Below are positions 17,149 through 24,467 of a DNA stretch of 64,000 bases, piece by piece; positions within the stretch are counted from its first letter, which is position 1; each line of letters begins with the position of its first letter. Source of the DNA: a virus (taxonomy: Duplodnaviria > Caudoviricetes). The notes below the pieces were generated by a model. That model was not told where the DNA came from, did not search any database, and worked only from the letters and a program-made list of their open reading frames with translations. The stretch lies in IMG/VR virus record IMGVR_UViG_3300037420_000828, positions 4,400 to 68,399 of that record, one strand, 5' to 3'. The translations under genes were made by a program, and so were the position numbers.

Positions 17149-17180
17149 CGGTCAAAACGACTGCCCCATCAGATCGAGGC

Positions 17181-17210
17181 AAGGCCCCGGGAGTTCGCCC
17201 CCGGGGCCTT
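17181..17210. terminator. Bidirectional terminator between the early island and terminase
   Basis: AAGGCCCCGG/CCGGGGCCTT stem at convergent gene ends. Confidence 0.65.
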
Positions 17211-17219
17211 CTTCGTGCC

Positions 17220-18905
17220 TCAGCCCACCTTCTTCGTGAGCCAGGGATTGCGGCCGACGGGCGAGCCGATCGGCCGGGCAATCTGGGCCTGCTTGCCGAG
17301 CATGGACATCAGCCGGTCGTGCGCGATCACCGAGGCGGCCACGCGGTCGGGCTGGTGGCGGCCGACGGTCCAGTTGACCGCCTGATCCTCCATCGCCGCC
17401 AGCTCGTGCCCCAGCACCACGCACGTCCCCACCTCCACGGCCTGGCGGAGGAGACCGGACCGGGCCACCGCATCGCCGGTCCCGCGCCAGCCTTGGACCC
17501 GGTTGAACAGGGCGTGGAGCTGGGCGAGCAGCCGCCGCTCCTCTTCCGTGCTGTCCCGCTTGCGCGCCAGCTCCTGCATCCGCCTGCTGATCTCGGTCTT
17601 GACCACGTTGATGTAGGTGGTCCCGGCGGTGTAGGTCTCGATGAAGATGTAGCTGGCGTCGGTCTCCAGCGCCAGGTCCACCGCCGCCCGGCCCCAGGCA
17701 TCGGAGGTCATCTGGCCGGAGCGGTCGTGGGTGAGAGCCACCTGCGGGTGGATCGGCGGCGGAGCGTCCTCCGGAGACATCAGCGCCGTCACAGTCTGCG
17801 TGACGCCGTTCGGCGGGTAGAGCAGCGCCGCGCCGATCACGCCAGCCTCGTCTCCCTCGCCGGATTCCGCCGGGTCGACCGTGACGATCCGGACCCTGGT
17901 CCGTTCCGGCATCTCCGCCAGCCGGTGCGCGTCGAACCACGCCTGGGAGAACAGGCCGCCCTCCGGCGGGGTGGGCGAGCCCTGGTACAGGGCGTTCCAG
18001 ACGCGCTTACCCACGCTGCGCTCGATGGCCCGGAAGTCCTCGGCGGTACGGCCCCGGGCGGACTCCAGCGCCACGCCCGGCGGCCGATCGAGGGCGTCAG
18101 GGATGGCGGGGTGGCTGATGGCGGGGATGTTGATGTAGTGCCACTCGCGCAGCTCCCGCTCCAGCGCCTTGTCGTGGGTGAGCAGCTGGCCGCAGAGGTC
18201 TTCGGGGTGCCAGCGGGTCTGGATGATGATGATGCTCGCGCCGGGGGCGAGGCGTGTGGTGGCGACGGAGTGATACCACTCGATGATCTTGGTGCGCATG
18301 GCGTGGGAGTCGGCCTCCTGCATGTTCTTGAACGGGTCGTCCACGATCAGCAGGTCCGCGCGCTTGCCGGTGATGGTGGCGTCGCGTCCGGCCGCTACCA
18401 GTCCTCCGTCGCCCTCGGCGATGCGCCAGTTGCTGGCGGTGGCCAGCTGCGGGTGCAGGCGGATGCCCAGCCGGTCCGGGAGCGGCTGGCCTGTCAGAGA
18501 GTCAACCACCCCCGATCCGAACTGCTGGATCAGCGCGCGGGCCGCGCGAGAGTGCTCCTCGGCCAGCCCGTCGGCGTAGGTCAGCAGCATCACCCGCCAG
18601 TTGGGGTGGAGCTGGAGCGCGCGAATCGGCGTGGTCACCGCGCACAGCATCGACTTGAATTCCTGCGGCGGCGCGGAGATCATCAGCCGCTTACGCCGAG
18701 ACCGCAGCACCTGCTCGATCTTGCGGCTGACCAGCTCCACCGCCGGGGTGATGACGTAGTCCTCGTTGCACGCCGCCATCAGCTCCGCCGGATGGGCGTA
18801 ACTGCTGACGATCCGCTGGCGGTTGGCGAGGGAGGCCAGCCGTTCGGCGGCGCGCTGGCGGCGAAACGGGCTCCACTCCGCCGCCGCCTCCAGGCCGATC
18901 GTCAT
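17220..18905 (-). CDS. terL: Terminase large subunit
   Basis: ISAPPQEFKS Walker A variant, GKRADLLIVDDP Walker B, QTRWHPEDL coupling motif, C-terminal nuclease (VDPA...DRV). Confidence 0.92.
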   Translation of the reverse strand: MTIGLEAAAEWSPFRRQRAAERLASLANRQRIVSSYAHPAELMAACNEDYVITPAVELVSRKIEQVLRSRRKRLMISAPPQEFKSMLCAVTTPIRALQLHPNWRVMLLTYADGLAEEHSRAARALIQQFGSGVVDSLTGQPLPDRLGIRLHPQLATASNWRIAEGDGGLVAAGRDATITGKRADLLIVDDPFKNMQEADSHAMRTKIIEWYHSVATTRLAPGASIIIIQTRWHPEDLCGQLLTHDKALERELREWHYINIPAISHPAIPDALDRPPGVALESARGRTAEDFRAIERSVGKRVWNALYQGSPTPPEGGLFSQAWFDAHRLAEMPERTRVRIVTVDPAESGEGDEAGVIGAALLYPPNGVTQTVTALMSPEDAPPPIHPQVALTHDRSGQMTSDAWGRAAVDLALETDASYIFIETYTAGTTYINVVKTEISRRMQELARKRDSTEEERRLLAQLHALFNRVQGWRGTGDAVARSGLLRQAVEVGTCVVLGHELAAMEDQAVNWTVGRHQPDRVAASVIAHDRLMSMLGKQAQIARPIGSPVGRNPWLTKKVG

Positions 18906-18906
18906 C

Positions 18907-19680
18907 TCAGCTCCCGGTGACCGCGAGTTCCGCCAGCCGACCGGCCAGGGTCTGGGTGTAGCCGAGGCGGATGTAGTCGGTGGTGTGGCGGCCGTCCCAG
19001 AGGTAGCCCCGGGCGAACGCCAGCGCTCCGGCCCAGCCCGCCCACTTCCACGGTGCCCACCAGTCCTGGAGGCGGCCCTGGGCCACGGCATCGAGCATCT
19101 TCGCGCCCCAGAGCAGGGCGTCCTCGGGGGTCTTGATGCTGTACCAGCCCACCAGGTCCGCCACCGTGCGCAGCGGGTTGCCCGCCGGAAGGGAGGCGAT
19201 CGGGTCACCCCACGCCGACACCCAGAACGTCGGGAACCGCACGGGGGAGATGGGGCGCTGGCCCGCGATGCCGTAGCCCTCGGAGACCGAACCCTGCCCA
19301 GGAGGGATCAGGCCCATGCCCTGCGGCCGGTAGCCGTCGGCGATCAGCGCCGCCGCGACCACGTTGTAGACCTCGCCCATGTTCAGCTCGGCGACGTCCT
19401 TGGCGACGTCCCCGGCGATGCACGCGCCCTGGCTGTAGCCCGCGAGCACCAGCGGAGTGCCCGCCGGGTATTCGTTCATCGCCTCGTAGAGGGCCGCCGC
19501 GCCGAGCCGCTTGGACTCCTCGAAGCTGTCCTCCAGGCCGCCGAAGCTGGCCGGATAGGGCACGACCCGCGTATCGAACAGCGCCGGGTCCAGGTGGGAC
19601 AGGAAGTCCGCGCTGATCGGGTCCGGCGAGGTGGGAAAGCCCGTGCCCGCCAGCATCAGCACGGTGATCTTGGAGCTCAC
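18907..19680 (-). CDS. lysB: Lysin B (cutinase-like mycolylarabinogalactan esterase)
   Basis: YPASFGG and AGYSQGA serine-hydrolase elbow, ALIADG, GDPI...H. Confidence 0.85.
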   Translation of the reverse strand: MSSKITVLMLAGTGFPTSPDPISADFLSHLDPALFDTRVVPYPASFGGLEDSFEESKRLGAAALYEAMNEYPAGTPLVLAGYSQGACIAGDVAKDVAELNMGEVYNVVAAALIADGYRPQGMGLIPPGQGSVSEGYGIAGQRPISPVRFPTFWVSAWGDPIASLPAGNPLRTVADLVGWYSIKTPEDALLWGAKMLDAVAQGRLQDWWAPWKWAGWAGALAFARGYLWDGRHTTDYIRLGYTQTLAGRLAELAVTGS

Positions 19681-20234
19681 AGTTCGGTCCTCTCGTGGAT
19701 GAGTGTGGATATCTCGTAGGACAGGATGTCAGGGTGGCCCGAGACCACGGTGACGCCGGGCGGCGGGTCGGCGGCGAGGTTGCGGGCGGCGGTGGCCCGG
19801 CCCGCCACCCAGGACGGGTTCTGCTCCCGGCCCAGTGTCTGCGCCCGCTCGCTGCGCCACTGATCAACGTACGGGTGGTCCAGGTGGGCCAGCAGCACCG
19901 CGTAGCCCGCTGCCGCAGCGGTGGCGAGGAAGCGCCGGTTGCCCAGGCGTGCGCCCTCGCCGAAGACGAGGTCAGCCTCCCTCTGGGCCACTATCCACGG
20001 GATCGCTGCGGTGATCACCGACTGCCCCAAGGCGTCCGTGCCCGCGAAGTGGGTCCGGCAGCGTCCCATCTCCACCGCCTCCAACGACGAGGTCGCTGGG
20101 TGCAGGAGGAAGTCCCTCGCCAGGGGCTGGGTCGGTCCCGGAACCCGAGTCCACTGGCGGGTCAGCTGGCGCATCAGGGTCGACTTCCCCGCCCCCGGTG
20201 CTCCCACCAGGTAGATCAGTTGTCGTCGGGTCAC
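19677..20234 (-). CDS. P-loop nucleotide/DNA kinase (hypermodification-associated type)
   Basis: Walker A GAPGAGKST, FAGTDAL and VFGEGARL motifs; last gene of the modification operon. Confidence 0.8.
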   Translation of the reverse strand: MTRRQLIYLVGAPGAGKSTLMRQLTRQWTRVPGPTQPLARDFLLHPATSSLEAVEMGRCRTHFAGTDALGQSVITAAIPWIVAQREADLVFGEGARLGNRRFLATAAAAGYAVLLAHLDHPYVDQWRSERAQTLGREQNPSWVAGRATAARNLAADPPPGVTVVSGHPDILSYEISTLIHERTEL

Positions 20235-20236
20235 TC

Positions 20237-21325
20237 TCAGCTCCCACTGTGGGCCTCCGCGATGTGCTGGCGAATGCTGGCGTTGGACACGGCGTCCACC
20301 ACCAGATGTACCCGGTTGACGCCGGAGGGGTTGGTGACGGCGTGCGGCTTGCGCGCGTCCAGGTAGTACATCCGCCAGGGCCGCAGGTGGGTCTCCCGGC
20401 GGGAGCCGTCCAGGTCCCAGGTGATGAGCTTGATGGACGGATCGGTGATGAGGGGGATGTGGAACCGCACAATCTGACCGTCGCGGGTGCCTCCGGCGCG
20501 GTCGGTGATGTCGGTGTGGCGGCCGAGCTTGCCTCCGGCGTTCATCTTGAGCAGCCGCACCCGCTCGGTCTCCCACCGCCACGGCATCAGCCGCACCCAG
20601 TCGGTGAGGGCGGGCAGCTCCCGCGTGAGCACGGTCCAGTCGCAGACGTTCGCCAGGGCAGCGCGGTTGGCCAGTTTCCAGGACTTCGGCATCTCGGCGG
20701 GCTTCACGCCCCGGCCGGGCTCGGCGGGCCAGAAGCCCTTGAGGCAGACCGCGCTCCAGCTGCCGTCGGAGTAGTAGGGGAAATCGTCATCCCAGCCTCG
20801 GACGATGTCCAGCTCGCCCAGGATGCGCTCCCGGCTCTGACGGGGGATGACCTCGCCGAAGTCGGTGACCGTGGCCCGGTCCCACGGTGCGTAGGCGGCC
20901 GGAGGGCGCGCCCCGATCGGCCCCCAGGTGTTGATCACCTCGGCGGCGGCGGTGACGCGACTGGCCCAGATGGCGCGGCCCTCACCGGCCAGCGCCAGAC
21001 TCAGCGGCCGGTCCTCCGCGTACGCCATCACGAAGTCATAGGGCGCGGTGTTGGGCAGCAGGTGCTCGCTGTGGGCGAGGTGGGTGGCGACGTAGGCCCC
21101 CTTGGGCAGGGTGAAGGTGCCGCCGGTGAAATCCGTGCGCACCGAGTCCCGCGTCAGCCGCCGCCCGATGACGATGGCGTACTGGTCGCCGTAGCGGGTG
21201 TTCTCGGTGATCAGGCTCGGCCGCGCCTCCAGCTCGCTGCGCATCGGAGTGGCGAAGGCTCCGGCGTGGTAGGCCTTCGCGTACGCCTGGAGCAGCCGGG
21301 GCACGTCAGCTGTGGGGGCGGTCAA
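20237..21325 (-). CDS. Fusion of an unknown (possibly degenerate GNAT-like) N-terminal domain and an Asp/Asn beta-hydroxylase-like 2OG-Fe(II) oxygenase
   Basis: C-terminal LGRHTD...RFHIPL.T...KPHAVTN...RVHLVVD (HxD...H facial triad). Confidence 0.75.
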   Translation of the reverse strand: MTAPTADVPRLLQAYAKAYHAGAFATPMRSELEARPSLITENTRYGDQYAIVIGRRLTRDSVRTDFTGGTFTLPKGAYVATHLAHSEHLLPNTAPYDFVMAYAEDRPLSLALAGEGRAIWASRVTAAAEVINTWGPIGARPPAAYAPWDRATVTDFGEVIPRQSRERILGELDIVRGWDDDFPYYSDGSWSAVCLKGFWPAEPGRGVKPAEMPKSWKLANRAALANVCDWTVLTRELPALTDWVRLMPWRWETERVRLLKMNAGGKLGRHTDITDRAGGTRDGQIVRFHIPLITDPSIKLITWDLDGSRRETHLRPWRMYYLDARKPHAVTNPSGVNRVHLVVDAVSNASIRQHIAEAHSGS

Positions 21326-22208
21326 TGATTCTCCCGGTGGCGCGGTAGATGGGCATCTTCGTGTCGTCTATGCCCCCGAGGGGGATCTCATTCCAAGGAT
21401 GCGGGATGACGGTGTACCACGCAGCCTTCGCCAGCTCCCGGTCCTCGGGGTCCGGCAGCGTCCATATCTCCTCCCGCAGGGCGGCGAGGTGGCGGCCGGG
21501 GTAGTAGCGGCCTCGGCGCATCACCAGGAAGTCACAGATCACCGTCTCGAAATCCACCCACGGCAGGTCCACGCCCTCGCCGTAGAGGTAGTCGCGGGTG
21601 ATGTTGGCGGCATCGTCCAGCTGCGCGGGGGAGGGGTTGATCATCCGGAACAGGTCCTCCAGGCTCCGGCGCGGGCCGGAGGACTCCCAGAGCTGGCCGT
21701 CGGCAGCATCCACCGGCATCCCGGCCACCTTGCCCATGAACTCCGCCCATTCGAACGCGCTCTGGCGGCCGACGCCCCACACCGTGCGCATCTGCTCGGT
21801 GAGCCGGGCGAAGTTGCGGCCGGGGTGACGCTGCGCGCCGATCCGGCCGATGGCCTGGGTCATCCACTCCGCCTCCGTGCGCCCGGCCAGCGCCGAGACG
21901 TAGGAGGCGTGGCGCTGGAGCACCCGGCCGCCCCGGAGGTTGCGACGCTCCTGGGTGCAGTTGAATTCGGCAGCGCGGTGCCGGTTTTCGGCCGCGCCCC
22001 AGTGGTGCGGGGACGGCCACAGCCGCATCGAGGACCACGCCGAGTGCAGGTCGTCGTGGGTGTTGTAGAGCGTGGCCAGCCATATTTTCTGGCTGCGGGG
22101 CAGCTCCACCGCCGCGATCACCTCCGCCCACGGCTCGATATCGTGGGTGGCCTTCTCGATGCGGGCGAAGGTGACCAGGTCGTTGAGGATGCGGGTGTCG
22201 ACGTTCAT
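21306..22208 (-). CDS. aGPT-PPlase2 / amino acid:DNA transferase family protein
   Basis: TQERRNLR, WGVGRQSAFEWAE and FETVICDF...GRYYPG motifs; between the TET and kinase genes. Confidence 0.75.
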   Translation of the reverse strand: MNVDTRILNDLVTFARIEKATHDIEPWAEVIAAVELPRSQKIWLATLYNTHDDLHSAWSSMRLWPSPHHWGAAENRHRAAEFNCTQERRNLRGGRVLQRHASYVSALAGRTEAEWMTQAIGRIGAQRHPGRNFARLTEQMRTVWGVGRQSAFEWAEFMGKVAGMPVDAADGQLWESSGPRRSLEDLFRMINPSPAQLDDAANITRDYLYGEGVDLPWVDFETVICDFLVMRRGRYYPGRHLAALREEIWTLPDPEDRELAKAAWYTVIPHPWNEIPLGGIDDTKMPIYRATGRIIDRPHS

Positions 22209-23068
22209 GCCTTGCCCGGAATCTTCATGTCCCCGGCGGCCATCCGCCTCGCCATCTCCGCCTCCCGCTCGGTGCGCTTGAGCTGCGCCCGGCGGGTCTC
22301 CTCGGCGGCGGTGCGGCAGTCCTTCATCCCCCGCAGGGCGTAGTAGACGATGCTGATGCGGTAGCCGTCGTCGGAGCGCAGACGGGCCAGCGGGGTGACG
22401 CCGTGGACCCAGCGCTTGCCGGGGAAGAGGGCGACGGTGGAATCGGCGCAGGCCAGTGCGACCCCGAATTCCGGCAGATGCAGATATCCGCCCCGTACGC
22501 CTCGGCGCAGGACCGGCATCGCACTCCAGGTGGAGAAGTTGAATCCGTCACGGTGGTACGGAAGGGCGGCGGTGTCGTTGACGACGCCGGAGGTCCAGAG
22601 TTTCGCCTCACCTATCCTCCAATCCGGCAGCACGTCGGCGAGCGTGGCCTGGTCGCGGGTGATGATGTCCGGGTCGATCTCCTTGAGCATCGCGGAGAAC
22701 TGGTCCGCATAGGTGTCCAGCACCGCCTCCACCCCCGGCTGGTCCCGCGAGAGTGCCGTCAGTGAGCAGGATTCGCGCCGGGTGACCACCCGGGGCGGCG
22801 CATAGCCGAACGTGCGCGAGCGGGAGCGGTAGGTGTTGTTGCGCTGGACGCCTCCGGAGCAGTCGATGGCCAGGGCTGCCCGGCGGAGGCGTCCAGCTTC
22901 GGCCAGCGGCAGATACGCAGCCACCGGCTCGCCCTCGCAGCTCAGGATGGTCGGGGCGGTGATGAGCCGGGTGCTCTCCGCCAGTTCCGGGACCGTGGTG
23001 CCGACCAGCTGCGAAGCTTCGTCCGGCGTGAGCCGCCGGGGCACATCGAGACGGCTCACGCCTTCCAT
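22205..23068 (-). CDS. TET/JBP-family 2OG-Fe(II) DNA base dioxygenase
   Basis: LPYHRDGFN (HxD), SAM..LR.G..GG.L.LPE, VHGVTP (second His), GYRISIVYY (2OG-binding Arg). Confidence 0.85.
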   Translation of the reverse strand: MEGVSRLDVPRRLTPDEASQLVGTTVPELAESTRLITAPTILSCEGEPVAAYLPLAEAGRLRRAALAIDCSGGVQRNNTYRSRSRTFGYAPPRVVTRRESCSLTALSRDQPGVEAVLDTYADQFSAMLKEIDPDIITRDQATLADVLPDWRIGEAKLWTSGVVNDTAALPYHRDGFNFSTWSAMPVLRRGVRGGYLHLPEFGVALACADSTVALFPGKRWVHGVTPLARLRSDDGYRISIVYYALRGMKDCRTAAEETRRAQLKRTEREAEMARRMAAGDMKIPGKA

Positions 23069-23073
23069 CGGGT

Positions 23074-23823
23074 CTACTCCTGGGTCTCGGCGGGGGCCGG
23101 GGCCTCCGGCGCGGTCTCGCCACTCCAGGATTCCAGCAGCTTGATGACGGCGGCGGTGTTGGACTCCAGGTCGAACTCGTCGCGGAAGCGGGTGAAGACC
23201 TCCTGCATCCAGATGAACTGCGGGATCGGCACCGTCAGCACCACGAGCCGCGTGGAGGCGTCCACGTAGGAATTGGCCTGGGTGTCGATGTCGGTGGAGT
23301 TGATCAGGCCGTCCTCGCCGGTGCGGGGCGGCTTCGGGGCGTTGTCGTCGCCGAGGCCCGCCGGGTCCAGCGCGTCGGGCAGGGCTTCCTCCAGGCTGGC
23401 GAGCAGGTCGCTGAATTCGTCGGCGGTGAAGGCCGTGCCCTCCAGGTCCGGCAGCCCGCTGAGGATGTCAGCCAGGACCTCCTGGTCGTAGCCGAACCCG
23501 GACTGGGCGGTCTTGTTGTCGGCGAGGACGATCCGGGCCGCCTGATCGTCGTCCACGTCGATCACGTAGGCGTCGACAGTGCGCCAGGCCGGGTTGTCGG
23601 GCTCGGCCTCCACCAGGTTGCGGAACGCCTTGACGGTGTGGTTGCCCGCCAGGACCTCGTTCGGGCGGCCGGTGTGGGTGCCGAGGTTCACCACGACCGG
23701 CCGGTACTGCCCGTTGACCCGCAGGCTGGACTCGATCACGGAGGGATTGCCCAGGTTCGGGTTGCGGTGGTAGAGGGCGAGTTCGCCCGGAGCGAACGCG
23801 CGGAGCTTGGAATCAGTGGCCAT
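23074..23823 (-). CDS. ParB-like nuclease domain protein (first gene of the modification operon)
   Basis: YHRNPN, GQYRPVVVN, EVLAGNHT, RIVLADNK ParB N-terminal motifs. Confidence 0.85.
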   Translation of the reverse strand: MATDSKLRAFAPGELALYHRNPNLGNPSVIESSLRVNGQYRPVVVNLGTHTGRPNEVLAGNHTVKAFRNLVEAEPDNPAWRTVDAYVIDVDDDQAARIVLADNKTAQSGFGYDQEVLADILSGLPDLEGTAFTADEFSDLLASLEEALPDALDPAGLGDDNAPKPPRTGEDGLINSTDIDTQANSYVDASTRLVVLTVPIPQFIWMQEVFTRFRDEFDLESNTAAVIKLLESWSGETAPEAPAPAETQE

Positions 23824-23852
23824 GCCAGCACTATAGGCGTGACCCGTGCGAA
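23821..23852 (-). promoter_or_regulatory. Leaderless-type promoter of the modification operon with an operator half-site
   Basis: GCACGGGTCACGCC-TATAGT-GCTGGC-ATG; no SD. Confidence 0.55.
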
Positions 23853-23930
23853 TACAGACAAAGACGCCCTCGGCGGTCGGAGCCGAGGGCGTCGAACCGG
23901 GTGTCAGCCCGGTGGGGTGCGGTGTCGAGT

Positions 23931-24467
23931 CTAGCGCGGACGCTCCAGGTAGTTGCGCAGGCGGGCATTGCCGCCCTCGGGCGTGTGACCGTCCCAGGGC
24001 GGAGCCGTGGGCAGCGCCGGAGCGTCGAACAGGTCCCAGTCCGCCTCCGGGTAGTGCTGGGTGACCTGGGCACCGTTGGGCAGGTAGAGGGTGACGATGA
24101 ACCAGCGCTCGCCGGGCTCGGTCTTGCCGAAGCAGGGCTCGCCGTCGTGGTGCCGCCAGGACTTCGACAGCATCGGCACACCCGGCGGCATTCCGGCGGG
24201 CTGATCCAGGATGCCCACCAGCGCGGACATCATCTTCACCGCCAGCGCGTGGTAGAGCATCCGCTGGTCGTACAGCTCGGCCATCGTGTGGAAGCCGTCG
24301 GAGGGCTCGGCCGGGTGTGCCTGGTCCCGCAGCCACTGGTCGAGAGGCAACGACGGCACATAGGGCGTCCCCTCCGCTCCGTGGTGCTCGTGGTGGTTGA
24401 AGATGTAGGTCATGAGCGCCTCGGCGTCCACGACCTGACCACGCAGTTCCGGGTACAGATCGGACAT
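23931..24467 (-). CDS. Conserved phage protein with WDGH motif
   Basis: SDGFHT..ELY..R, KS.RH.DG..CFG, WFIV..LP..Q...HY...WDLF, APPWDGHT. Confidence 0.75.
   Translation of the reverse strand: MSDLYPELRGQVVDAEALMTYIFNHHEHHGAEGTPYVPSLPLDQWLRDQAHPAEPSDGFHTMAELYDQRMLYHALAVKMMSALVGILDQPAGMPPGVPMLSKSWRHHDGEPCFGKTEPGERWFIVTLYLPNGAQVTQHYPEADWDLFDAPALPTAPPWDGHTPEGGNARLRNYLERPR

Follow-up and report, generated by a model that had tools for sequence, protein, structure and literature searches.

Gene Organization of the Locus

The stretch of viral DNA analysed here, 64,000 nucleotides long and called the window throughout, covers bases 4400–68399 of a complete 68,399-bp IMG/VR virus record (IMGVR_UViG_3300037420_000828) with terminal repeats of 127 bp. 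It carries on its minus strand a cassette of five genes encoding a ParB-like protein, a TET/JBP-type dioxygenase dependent on Fe(II) and 2-oxoglutarate (2OG), an amino acid:DNA transferase (AADT), a two-domain oxygenase that we call “D”, and a P-loop kinase, followed by the genes of a LysB-type esterase and of the large terminase subunit, TerL. We consider it probable that this cassette encodes a ParB-dependent, TET/JBP-initiated pathway of post-replicative thymine hypermodification, set in one unit with LysB and terminase. The genome has a GC content of about 68%, with T making up 16.3% of its bases, and megablast returned only short matches of 70–76% identity to Cluster B phages together with short stretches in Microbacterium phages; the source, a soil actinophage related to Cluster B mycobacteriophages, is thus a distant relative and no known isolate. 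Among public sequencing runs, two soil or rhizosphere metagenomes contain the stretch and may be where it came from, and no RNA run is listed as containing it. From the upstream end, the features of the unit are as follows.

23863–23893, minus strand: terminator-like hairpin of 12 bp, 10 of them G-C pairs, then TTTGTCTGT
23830–23835, minus strand: −10-like hexamer TATAGT, six bases before the ParB ATG, read by eye
23074–23823, minus strand: ParB-like protein, 249 amino acids (aa), ATG at 23823, pI 4.2
22205–23068, minus strand: TET/JBP Fe(II)/2OG dioxygenase (5mYOX), 287 aa, Pfam Tet_JBP
21306–22208, minus strand: AADT (Pfam ADDT, PF18724, formerly aGPT-Pplase2), 300 aa
20237–21325, minus strand: two-domain oxygenase D, 362 aa, TTG start with a GGGAG ribosome-binding site
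19677–20234, minus strand: P-loop kinase, Ploopntkinase3, 185 aa, GTG start
18907–19680, minus strand: LysB-type cutinase/esterase, 257 aa, Pfam Cutinase and PE-PPE, PHROG endolysin
17220–18905, minus strand: TerL, 561 aa, by tblastn to TerL of related loci and Cluster B synteny, last in the unit
17161–17182, minus strand: weaker terminator-like hairpin, after TerL

All five cassette open reading frames (ORFs) are present on the minus strand, with a third-position GC of 0.87–0.93 where computed, and the junctions between the seven genes from ParB-like to TerL run from −20 to +5 nt, which confirms the tight packing that had been claimed in the original prediction, made from the sequence alone. 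The extent given there, 19677–23852, contains the correct gene set, but its upper end takes in the promoter region, given that the ParB ATG lies at 23823. The leaderless-type promoter proposed at the same time fits the sequence on a reading by eye, TATAGT standing six bases before the ATG with no Shine-Dalgarno sequence in between, but a consensus scan for sigma-70 found no full promoter, and TATAGT is a possible promoter of a leaderless ParB mRNA. The motifs named in the original prediction (HxD...H...R of TET, ERR and ETVICD of AADT, HxD...H of the second oxygenase, and Walker A of the kinase) are intact, with catalytic residues invariant in the homologue alignments, and in profile searches Tet_JBP, ADDT, and the P-loop kinase family Ploopntkinase3 all score over their cut-offs. 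In the case of the kinase, a 301-aa ORF was rejected as an upstream over-extension, the GTG start giving 185 aa; in the case of D, the homologues conserve residues 10–27, and this supports the long TTG-start form.

With the hairpin at 23863–23893 the upstream WDGH-domain gene is closed off and a new transcription unit begins. That gene, beyond the strong terminator, lies at 23931–24467 on the minus strand and encodes a protein of 178 aa (PF25311, 86 bits). At the other end, LysB is co-transcribed with the cassette and is outside the modification pathway. Its gene sits between those of the kinase and TerL, but in the Cluster B phages examined the kinase gene directly abuts TerL, and therefore the LysB gene appears to have been inserted into the late operon.

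The TET/JBP Dioxygenase and Its ParB-like Partner

The dioxygenase matches Tet_JBP (PF12851) with 35.2 bits against a cut-off of 34.9, and with 36.5 bits in the genome scan. Among 34 homologues, H172-R-D174, H222, and R237, that is, the Fe(II) triad and the 2OG-binding arginine, are invariant. Also invariant is C251, which is followed by a conserved 36-aa C-terminal tail with invariant E257, R265, E269, A273, R275, and G279, and which we infer to be equivalent to C280 of 5mYOX176. Searched against the PDB, the TET profile has its best matches in NgTet1 and TET2 (E 0.008–0.07).

It was Lee et al. (NAR 2021; PMC8989533) who predicted that TET_JBP proteins replace the deoxyuridylate (dUMP) hydroxymethylase and who proposed the in-situ formation of 5-hydroxymethyluracil (5hmU). 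Subsequently, phage T-dioxygenases of two subclasses were shown in vivo and in vitro by O’Toole et al. (PNAS 2026; PMC13229309), one of which needs an adjacent ParB homologue in order to act on double-stranded DNA. For the ParB-dependent subclass the same authors describe genes “consistently linked” to it, those of P-loop kinases, AADTs, and GATases; its enzymes have a C-terminal extension after a conserved cysteine, and its ParBs retain the nucleotide-binding and C-terminal domains, without the DNA-binding domain (PMC13229309). The statement in the original prediction that characterised phage TETs act on 5-methylcytosine (5mC) together with a methyltransferase is therefore out of date.

In the window, 5 nt separate the ParB-like gene from the start of TET, and PF00145 has no match in the whole genome. 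The window TET is predicted to oxidise thymine to 5hmU on DNA. That it would instead target 5mC like the first characterised phage TETs, with the whole cassette hypermodifying cytosine, seems to us highly improbable: the TET/JBP family does include 5mC oxidases, and the two characterised T-dioxygenases oxidise 5mC in vitro as well (PMC13229309), but no C5-methyltransferase match turned up anywhere in the complete genome, its partners AADT and kinase belong to the thymidine pathway, and the ParB-associated clade C1 enzymes yield 5hmU in vivo (PMC13229309).

The ParB-like protein matches PHROG ParB families only (PHROG 6392, 8e-75), with no Pfam match at E ≤ 0.1, ParB_N included; some of its homologues carry PF02195. 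By sequence, its N-domain and a C-terminal block are conserved and the linker between them is variable, which leaves no room for a helix-turn-helix DNA-binding domain, and its pI of 4.2 is close to the family median of 4.3. The best PDB match of its profile is Noc, a weak one (E 0.015), with EVLaGNHt aligned to ELIAGERR. If this alignment is right, the arginines by which segregation ParBs bind the CTP phosphates would be missing here, and this would fit the report that nucleotide-site mutations of ParB do not abolish dioxygenase activation (PMC13229309). By analogy, the protein is predicted to work as the activator of the adjacent thymine dioxygenase, a role that was overlooked in the original prediction, which gave ParB no function at all, although characterised ParB neighbours do activate T-dioxygenases (PMC13229309). 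A TET-ParB complex prediction, made with our own alignments, scored 0.02 against a mark of 0.32; it gives no verdict, and we use it neither way.

The AADT and the Proposed Post-Replicative Route

The third protein scores 54.4 bits with the ADDT profile against a cut-off of 26.2, and its own profile reaches two solved AADTs, namely PDB 25qc (3.7e-13) and PaMx11 gp46, 8z2m (6.6e-7). In the alignment with 25qc, both ERR and the cysteine of ETVxC line up, and within the homologue alignment E87-R88-R89 and E221-T222...C225-D226 are invariant. In PaMx11 gp46, Cys247 is the proposed nucleophile attacking C6 of 5-phosphomethyl-dU, and the known AADT chemistry requires a phosphorylated hydroxymethyl group (PMC11472151). 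Single-sequence PDB searches with AADT, ParB, and kinase gave nothing useful, and profiles were needed.

Where the 5hmU would come from was addressed in the complete 68,399-bp genome, in which Thymidylat_synt (ThyA), Thy1 (ThyX), C5 DNA_methylase, N6_N4_Mtase, and Glycos_transf_2 have no match at E ≤ 1, in a scan that did not take in other glycosyltransferase families such as the TET-associated glycosyltransferase (TAGT); each of these profiles did find matches in control genomes. A methyltransferase or hydroxymethylase encoded outside the window would have spoken against the original prediction, and no match of the ThyA family or of C5 or N6/N4 methylases turned up in the whole genome. Its statement that C5-methyltransferase, glycosyltransferase, and dUMP hydroxymethylase are all missing can thus be widened from the window to the genome for C5, ThyA, and Glycos_transf_2. 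Given that no alternative source of 5hmU or 5mC was found among the profiles searched, a fully post-replicative route is the best reading, and the order TET, kinase, transferase, and oxygenase proposed earlier is supported by the gene content, by the lack of a hydroxymethylase or C5-methylase match, and by the literature.

We suggest keeping in mind what speaks against this pathway. The Tet_JBP score is only marginally over its cut-off, and the position of the ParB GERR box reads G60-N61-H62-T63, which is invariant in 36 homologues. A literature search found no base-composition or activity data for any Cluster B phage, and the characterised ParB-dependent enzymes oxidise only 1–35% of T, with a sequence preference (PMC13229309). 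By analogy with the latter, thymine modification in this phage may be sparse.

Distribution and Modularity of the Cassette

We assembled 28 IMG/VR loci with a D homologue at least 40% identical, several of them being the same phage from different samples. Immediately downstream of D comes the kinase gene in all 28, and immediately upstream comes the gene of an AADT belonging to the window subfamily (46–68% identical to that of the window) in all 26 loci with enough flanking sequence; ParB and TET precede the AADT in most of the 28. In contrast, the AADTs of cassettes without D are only 27–31% identical to the window AADT, so that, at the level of sequence identity, D goes together with a single AADT subfamily.

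Among 50,697 phage records, the kinase is found in 403, TET in 101, and AADT in 17, and LilMcDreamy, under two accessions, is the only cultured phage with D. In the TET-bearing Cluster B (Bclasvirinae) mycobacteriophages, as in some Gordonia phages, the genome has ParB-TET-X-Y-kinase-TerL at its left end, and Microbacterium and Rhodococcus phages carry a TET gene near the left end too. The middle slot of the cassette is modular: the tailoring slot holds a TAGT and a PIG-L deacetylase in PRodriguez, an AADT and a FAD oxidoreductase in Phelemich, and an AADT and D in LilMcDreamy and the window.

The variant with D occurs in soil and rhizosphere viromes and also in a prophage of Kribbella sp. (GCA_042730855.1, JBHWKR010000008.1:206941-226059), where Prim-Pol and helicase-like genes come before ParB-TET-AADT-D-kinase and the genes of TerS, TerL, portal, protease, and capsid come after it. 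The module is thus present in temperate phages as well, in a cultivable host genus. Terminase genes are neighbours of the cassette in several lineages; with regard to the coupling to packaging suggested in the original prediction, this repeated adjacency is what is shown, and it may simply reflect late expression.

The P-Loop Kinase

The fifth protein matches Ploopntkinase3 (PF18751) with 164.7 bits against a cut-off of 27, and its Walker A motif reads GAPGAGKS. It is predicted to be the 5-hmU DNA kinase by context and not by orthology, the activation step being deduced from its neighbours and from the chemical need of the AADT. A different reading is that the fifth gene encodes a terminase-linked P-loop protein of packaging or nucleotide metabolism that merely adjoins the cassette, in which case some other enzyme would activate 5hmU or the AADT would use another substrate.

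A number of results count for this second reading and against the kinase step. PF18751 is unmatched (E ≤ 0.01) in all five phages from which validated 5-hmU DNA kinases come (PaMx11, ViI, M6, phiW-14, and SP10), and BLASTP of the window kinase against PaMx11 gp49, which matches AAA_33 and Zeta_toxin and not PF18751, gives 37% identity over 43 residues, confined to the surroundings of Walker A. Moreover, in about 300 Cluster B1 records a homologue 46–47% identical to the window kinase takes the gene 1 position and overlaps the terminase gene, apparently in the absence of ParB, TET, and AADT, and the one B1 genome scanned directly (Bluephacebaby, MW534381.1, kinase locus 1-2351) has no Tet_JBP or ThyA-family match. 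Kinase homologues are present in 376 Mycobacterium phage records versus only 64 for TET, and cassettes of the PRodriguez type pair the kinase with a glycosyltransferase, an enzyme that does not depend on phosphate as a leaving group.

On the other hand, the known AADT chemistry needs its phosphorylated hydroxymethyl group and the cassette has no other kinase, the kinase gene follows D directly in every one of the 28 loci, and it stays with AADT or D when it is parted from the terminase gene, be it by LysB in the window, by TerS in Kribbella, by five genes in Rhodococcus phage Tonitrus, or by one gene in Gordonia phage Wooper. The Kribbella prophage has its own TerS. We therefore judge a mere terminase neighbour unlikely and keep the 5-hmU DNA kinase as the predicted function. 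The activation of 5hmU by the kinase is a weaker step than the original prediction assumed: a P-loop kinase is indeed encoded beside an AADT, but its family differs from that of all the validated 5-hmU DNA kinases that could be compared, and the routine “5-hmU DNA kinase” label for Ploopntkinase3 proteins has context as its only basis.

Two database labels were rejected. “Terminase small subunit” does not suit the kinase, which belongs to a P-loop kinase fold family and coexists with a separate TerS in the Kribbella prophage. “Queuine tRNA-ribosyltransferase” or DpdA does not suit TET, for which Tet_JBP is the sole Pfam match (E ≤ 0.1) and the PDB profile search brought up no tRNA-guanine transglycosylase; the queuine label derives from phrog_6059 and older GenBank records. 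In actinophage records the labels are inconsistent, TET being called “queuine tRNA-ribosyltransferase”, “DpdA-like tRNA-guanine transglycosylase”, or “oxidoreductase”, and the kinase “adenylate kinase” or “terminase small subunit”, the latter also being the label given to gp49, the validated kinase of PaMx11. Such TET and kinase labels are probably wrong in many actinophage records.

The Two-Domain Oxygenase D

D has at least 296 metagenomic homologues, nearly all of about 360 aa, and its AlphaFold2 model, built on a 53-sequence alignment, reached a predicted local distance difference test (pLDDT) of 95 and a predicted template-modelling score of 0.90. In this model, residues 145–362 adopt the double-stranded beta-helix fold of the 2OG/Fe(II) oxygenases (Foldseek E 4e-11), matching proline 3-hydroxylase and L-proline cis-4-hydroxylase (1e5r, 4p7x) with Z 16.0 and a root-mean-square deviation of 2.7–3.2 over 158–189 residues, and further a β-hydroxylase of a nucleoside-antibiotic pathway (Z 15.1) and AspH (Z 14.9). 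H270-x-D272, H328, and R338 are invariant in the homologues, and in the PDB profile alignment H328 and R338 align to the distal histidine (“PH”) and the RLHLVVD arginine of 4p7w. D reaches 22.1 bits with Asp_Arg_Hydrox (PF05118), whose cut-off is 22.6; this domain is present in many of the close homologues, and distant ones score 37–50 bits.

The N-domain (residues 1–148), folded alone, gave a pLDDT of 91, and all 50 of the 50 structural matches listed are GNAT-fold chains (Z 7.0–9.0, 112–133 residues aligned); its Foldseek match is weak (E 0.04), and an ESM Atlas search, with a best score of 0.76, was uninformative. The profile of this domain, searched against 1.84 billion representative proteins, returned 149 clusters, almost all of 350–420 aa with the domain at the N-terminus, and a Pfam scan of ten of the matches (eight of more than 400 aa) found PF05118 in seven, no family in three, and GNAT in none. 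D is thus a stable two-domain enzyme and no recent fusion. What the original prediction had called an “unknown/beta-hydroxylase fusion” is therefore a two-domain protein, with a C-terminal part modelled as a 2OG oxygenase near the proline and Asp hydroxylases and an N-terminal part of GNAT-like fold.

Several of these scores and comparisons tell against the assignment of D and of its N-domain in particular: the Asp_Arg_Hydrox score falls 0.5 bit under the cut-off, the GNAT-like fold match reaches only Z 7–9, the N-domain has no GNAT Pfam match even at E ≤ 10, hhalign of this domain with PaMx11 gp48 gives a probability of 0.05%, that is, no relation, and by eye no conserved acetyl-CoA pyrophosphate loop (Q/RxxGxG/A) is seen in the N-domain consensus. 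The GNAT assignment, read from the model, is one of fold level only.

By analogy, D may tailor the appended amino acid, as suggested by the fact that its slot is held in Phelemich by a FAD oxidoreductase, matching the logic of PaMx11 gp47. Since the relatives of D hydroxylate side-chain carbons of amino acids, a stable hydroxylation is ranked first, and hydroxylation of the alpha-carbon, with collapse to 5-aminomethyl-dU and possible acylation by the N-domain, would be the second choice. Taken together, we put forward tentatively, and at somewhat less than even chances, that AADT and D yield an uncatalogued thymine derivative, for example a side-chain-hydroxylated, possibly N-acylated N-alpha-aminoacyl-thymine, that D tailors the amino acid while it is attached to DNA, and that the D module of a ParB-methylase/pyridoxal phosphate (PLP) enzyme cluster belongs to a further modification pathway.

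Alternatively, D could act off DNA, either hydroxylating the free amino acid before its transfer by AADT or hydroxylating a protein. The nearest solved relatives, proline 3-hydroxylase and L-proline cis-4-hydroxylase, do use free amino acids, AspH and P4H use proteins, and no DNA-binding feature was identified in D, whose family has a median pI of 7.2. However, the tailoring enzymes of this pathway that have been characterised all work on polymeric DNA (PMC8989533), and in one polypeptide (P0501) distant D homologues are joined to a PLP enzyme and a DNA methylase-like domain, a fusion that puts the module at DNA. The strict pairing of D with one AADT subfamily is compatible with either substrate, and we rejected pI as a proxy for DNA binding because it does not discriminate: the AADT family acts on DNA and yet is acidic, with a median pI of 5.6. 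An off-DNA substrate is, in our judgement, rather doubtful, and tailoring on DNA stays as the preferred proposal.

The distant D homologues, 30–35% identical, are found in another recurrent phage cluster (L035:4046-9036, L043:4152-7711, L046:2933-6928, L037:798-3691, and L034:4934-7080). The gene order there is a ParB_N and N6/N4 DNA-methylase fusion, a D-like oxygenase of 380–396 aa, and a PALP-type PLP enzyme of about 245 aa, with TerL next in L035 and ThyX just upstream in L034; TET, AADT, and kinase are undetectable in these loci. Fused forms also exist, namely P0494, with PALP, N-domain, and oxygenase, and P0501 (1357 aa), with methylase, PALP, N-domain, and oxygenase. This D-like/PALP/methylase cluster may be another DNA modification pathway.

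Proposed Mechanism

In the pathway that we propose, the TET/JBP dioxygenase, once activated by the acidic ParB-like protein, would first hydroxylate the C5-methyl group of some thymines in double-stranded phage DNA, giving 5hmU, and the P-loop kinase would then phosphorylate the new hydroxyl group. The conserved cysteine of the AADT would next attack C6, the phosphate being expelled and a free amino acid installed through its alpha-amine. Lastly, D would tailor the appended amino acid, its 2OG domain most likely hydroxylating a side-chain carbon or, less likely, hydroxylating the alpha-carbon and so cleaving the adduct to 5-aminomethyluracil, and its GNAT-like domain would either hold the substrate or acylate an amine. 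The activity of each window protein, the amino acid used, the final base, and the biological role are those that we infer.

If D does edit a DNA-borne amino acid, it would be the first example shown of a 2OG oxygenase that tailors an amino acid after its attachment to DNA, and a new enzyme class for DNA modification chemistry, with possible use as a tool for site-specific DNA functionalisation.

Comparison with Known Systems

This type of cassette has already been published, was partly validated between 2021 and 2026, and is annotated in GenBank for Gordonia and Rhodococcus phages. What is specific here is an undescribed GNAT-like/2OG-oxygenase enzyme tied to one AADT subfamily, a kinase family outside the validated ones, and an uncharacterised final base. 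TET/JBP-started post-replicative thymine hypermodification has been shown only recently, and no AADT-containing cassette started by TET has a chemically identified end product.

The closest characterised systems are the 5mYOX176/ParB176 clusters of clade C1 (PMC13229309), a likeness drawn from gene context and features and not from alignment to clade reference sequences. As in those clusters, the ParB-like and TET/JBP genes of the window are adjacent, no C5-methylase gene is in the neighbourhood, a kinase and an AADT are linked, TET has a tail after the conserved cysteine, ParB is short with no obvious DNA-binding domain, and terminase genes are often near. They differ in that the text of PMC13229309 describes no cupin or hydroxylase partner, the words “hydroxylase” and “cupin” appearing there only in a reference title. 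In contrast with the chromosome-segregation ParBs, which read GERR, the window ParB reads GNHT.

In PaMx11, the AADT-FAD lyase-GNAT-kinase series (gp46-gp49) makes 5-acetylaminomethyl-dU, the glycine adduct being oxidatively cleaved and then acetylated (PMC8989533). The order AADT, tailoring, and kinase and the catalytic cysteine motif of the AADT are shared with the window, and the tailoring equipment is comparable, being an oxidative enzyme plus a GNAT in PaMx11 and a GNAT-like domain fused to an oxidative enzyme here. However, 5hmU in PaMx11 is made before replication by a ThyA-type hydroxymethylase and here, as proposed, by TET with ParB; a flavoprotein serves as the oxidant there and a 2OG oxygenase here; with 55.7 bits for Acetyltransf_1, gp48 is a canonical GNAT, but no GNAT sequence signal is present in the D N-domain; and the kinases are of different P-loop families.

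Among actinophages, Gordonia phage Wooper, Rhodococcus phage Tonitrus (PMC11955845), and Mycobacterium phages Phelemich and PRodriguez share the ParB-TET front end and the kinase family of the window. Wooper and Tonitrus already have the genes annotated in GenBank as ParB-like, Tet-like J-binding protein, and aGPT-Pplase2, with a note of “5-hmU DNA kinase” on the kinase of Wooper. Unlike the window, these other actinophages have AADTs 27–31% identical to its own, and in Wooper and Tonitrus the slot is taken by an uncharacterised protein of about 290 aa.

The nearest cultured counterpart is Mycobacterium phage LilMcDreamy (Bclasvirinae, NC_051582), whose left-arm genes 1–5 correspond one to one, and in unchanged order ahead of TerL, to the five genes of the cassette, with identities of 42–43% for ParB, 58% for TET, 61% for AADT, 60% for D, and 48% for the kinase; it differs from the window, where LysB stands between kinase and TerL. 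In its annotation, genes 3 and 4 are hypothetical, gene 2 is a “queuine tRNA-ribosyltransferase”, and gene 5 is a “terminase small subunit”. Easily grown on M. smegmatis mc2 155, LilMcDreamy provides a cultured model for the final base and for each step of the pathway.

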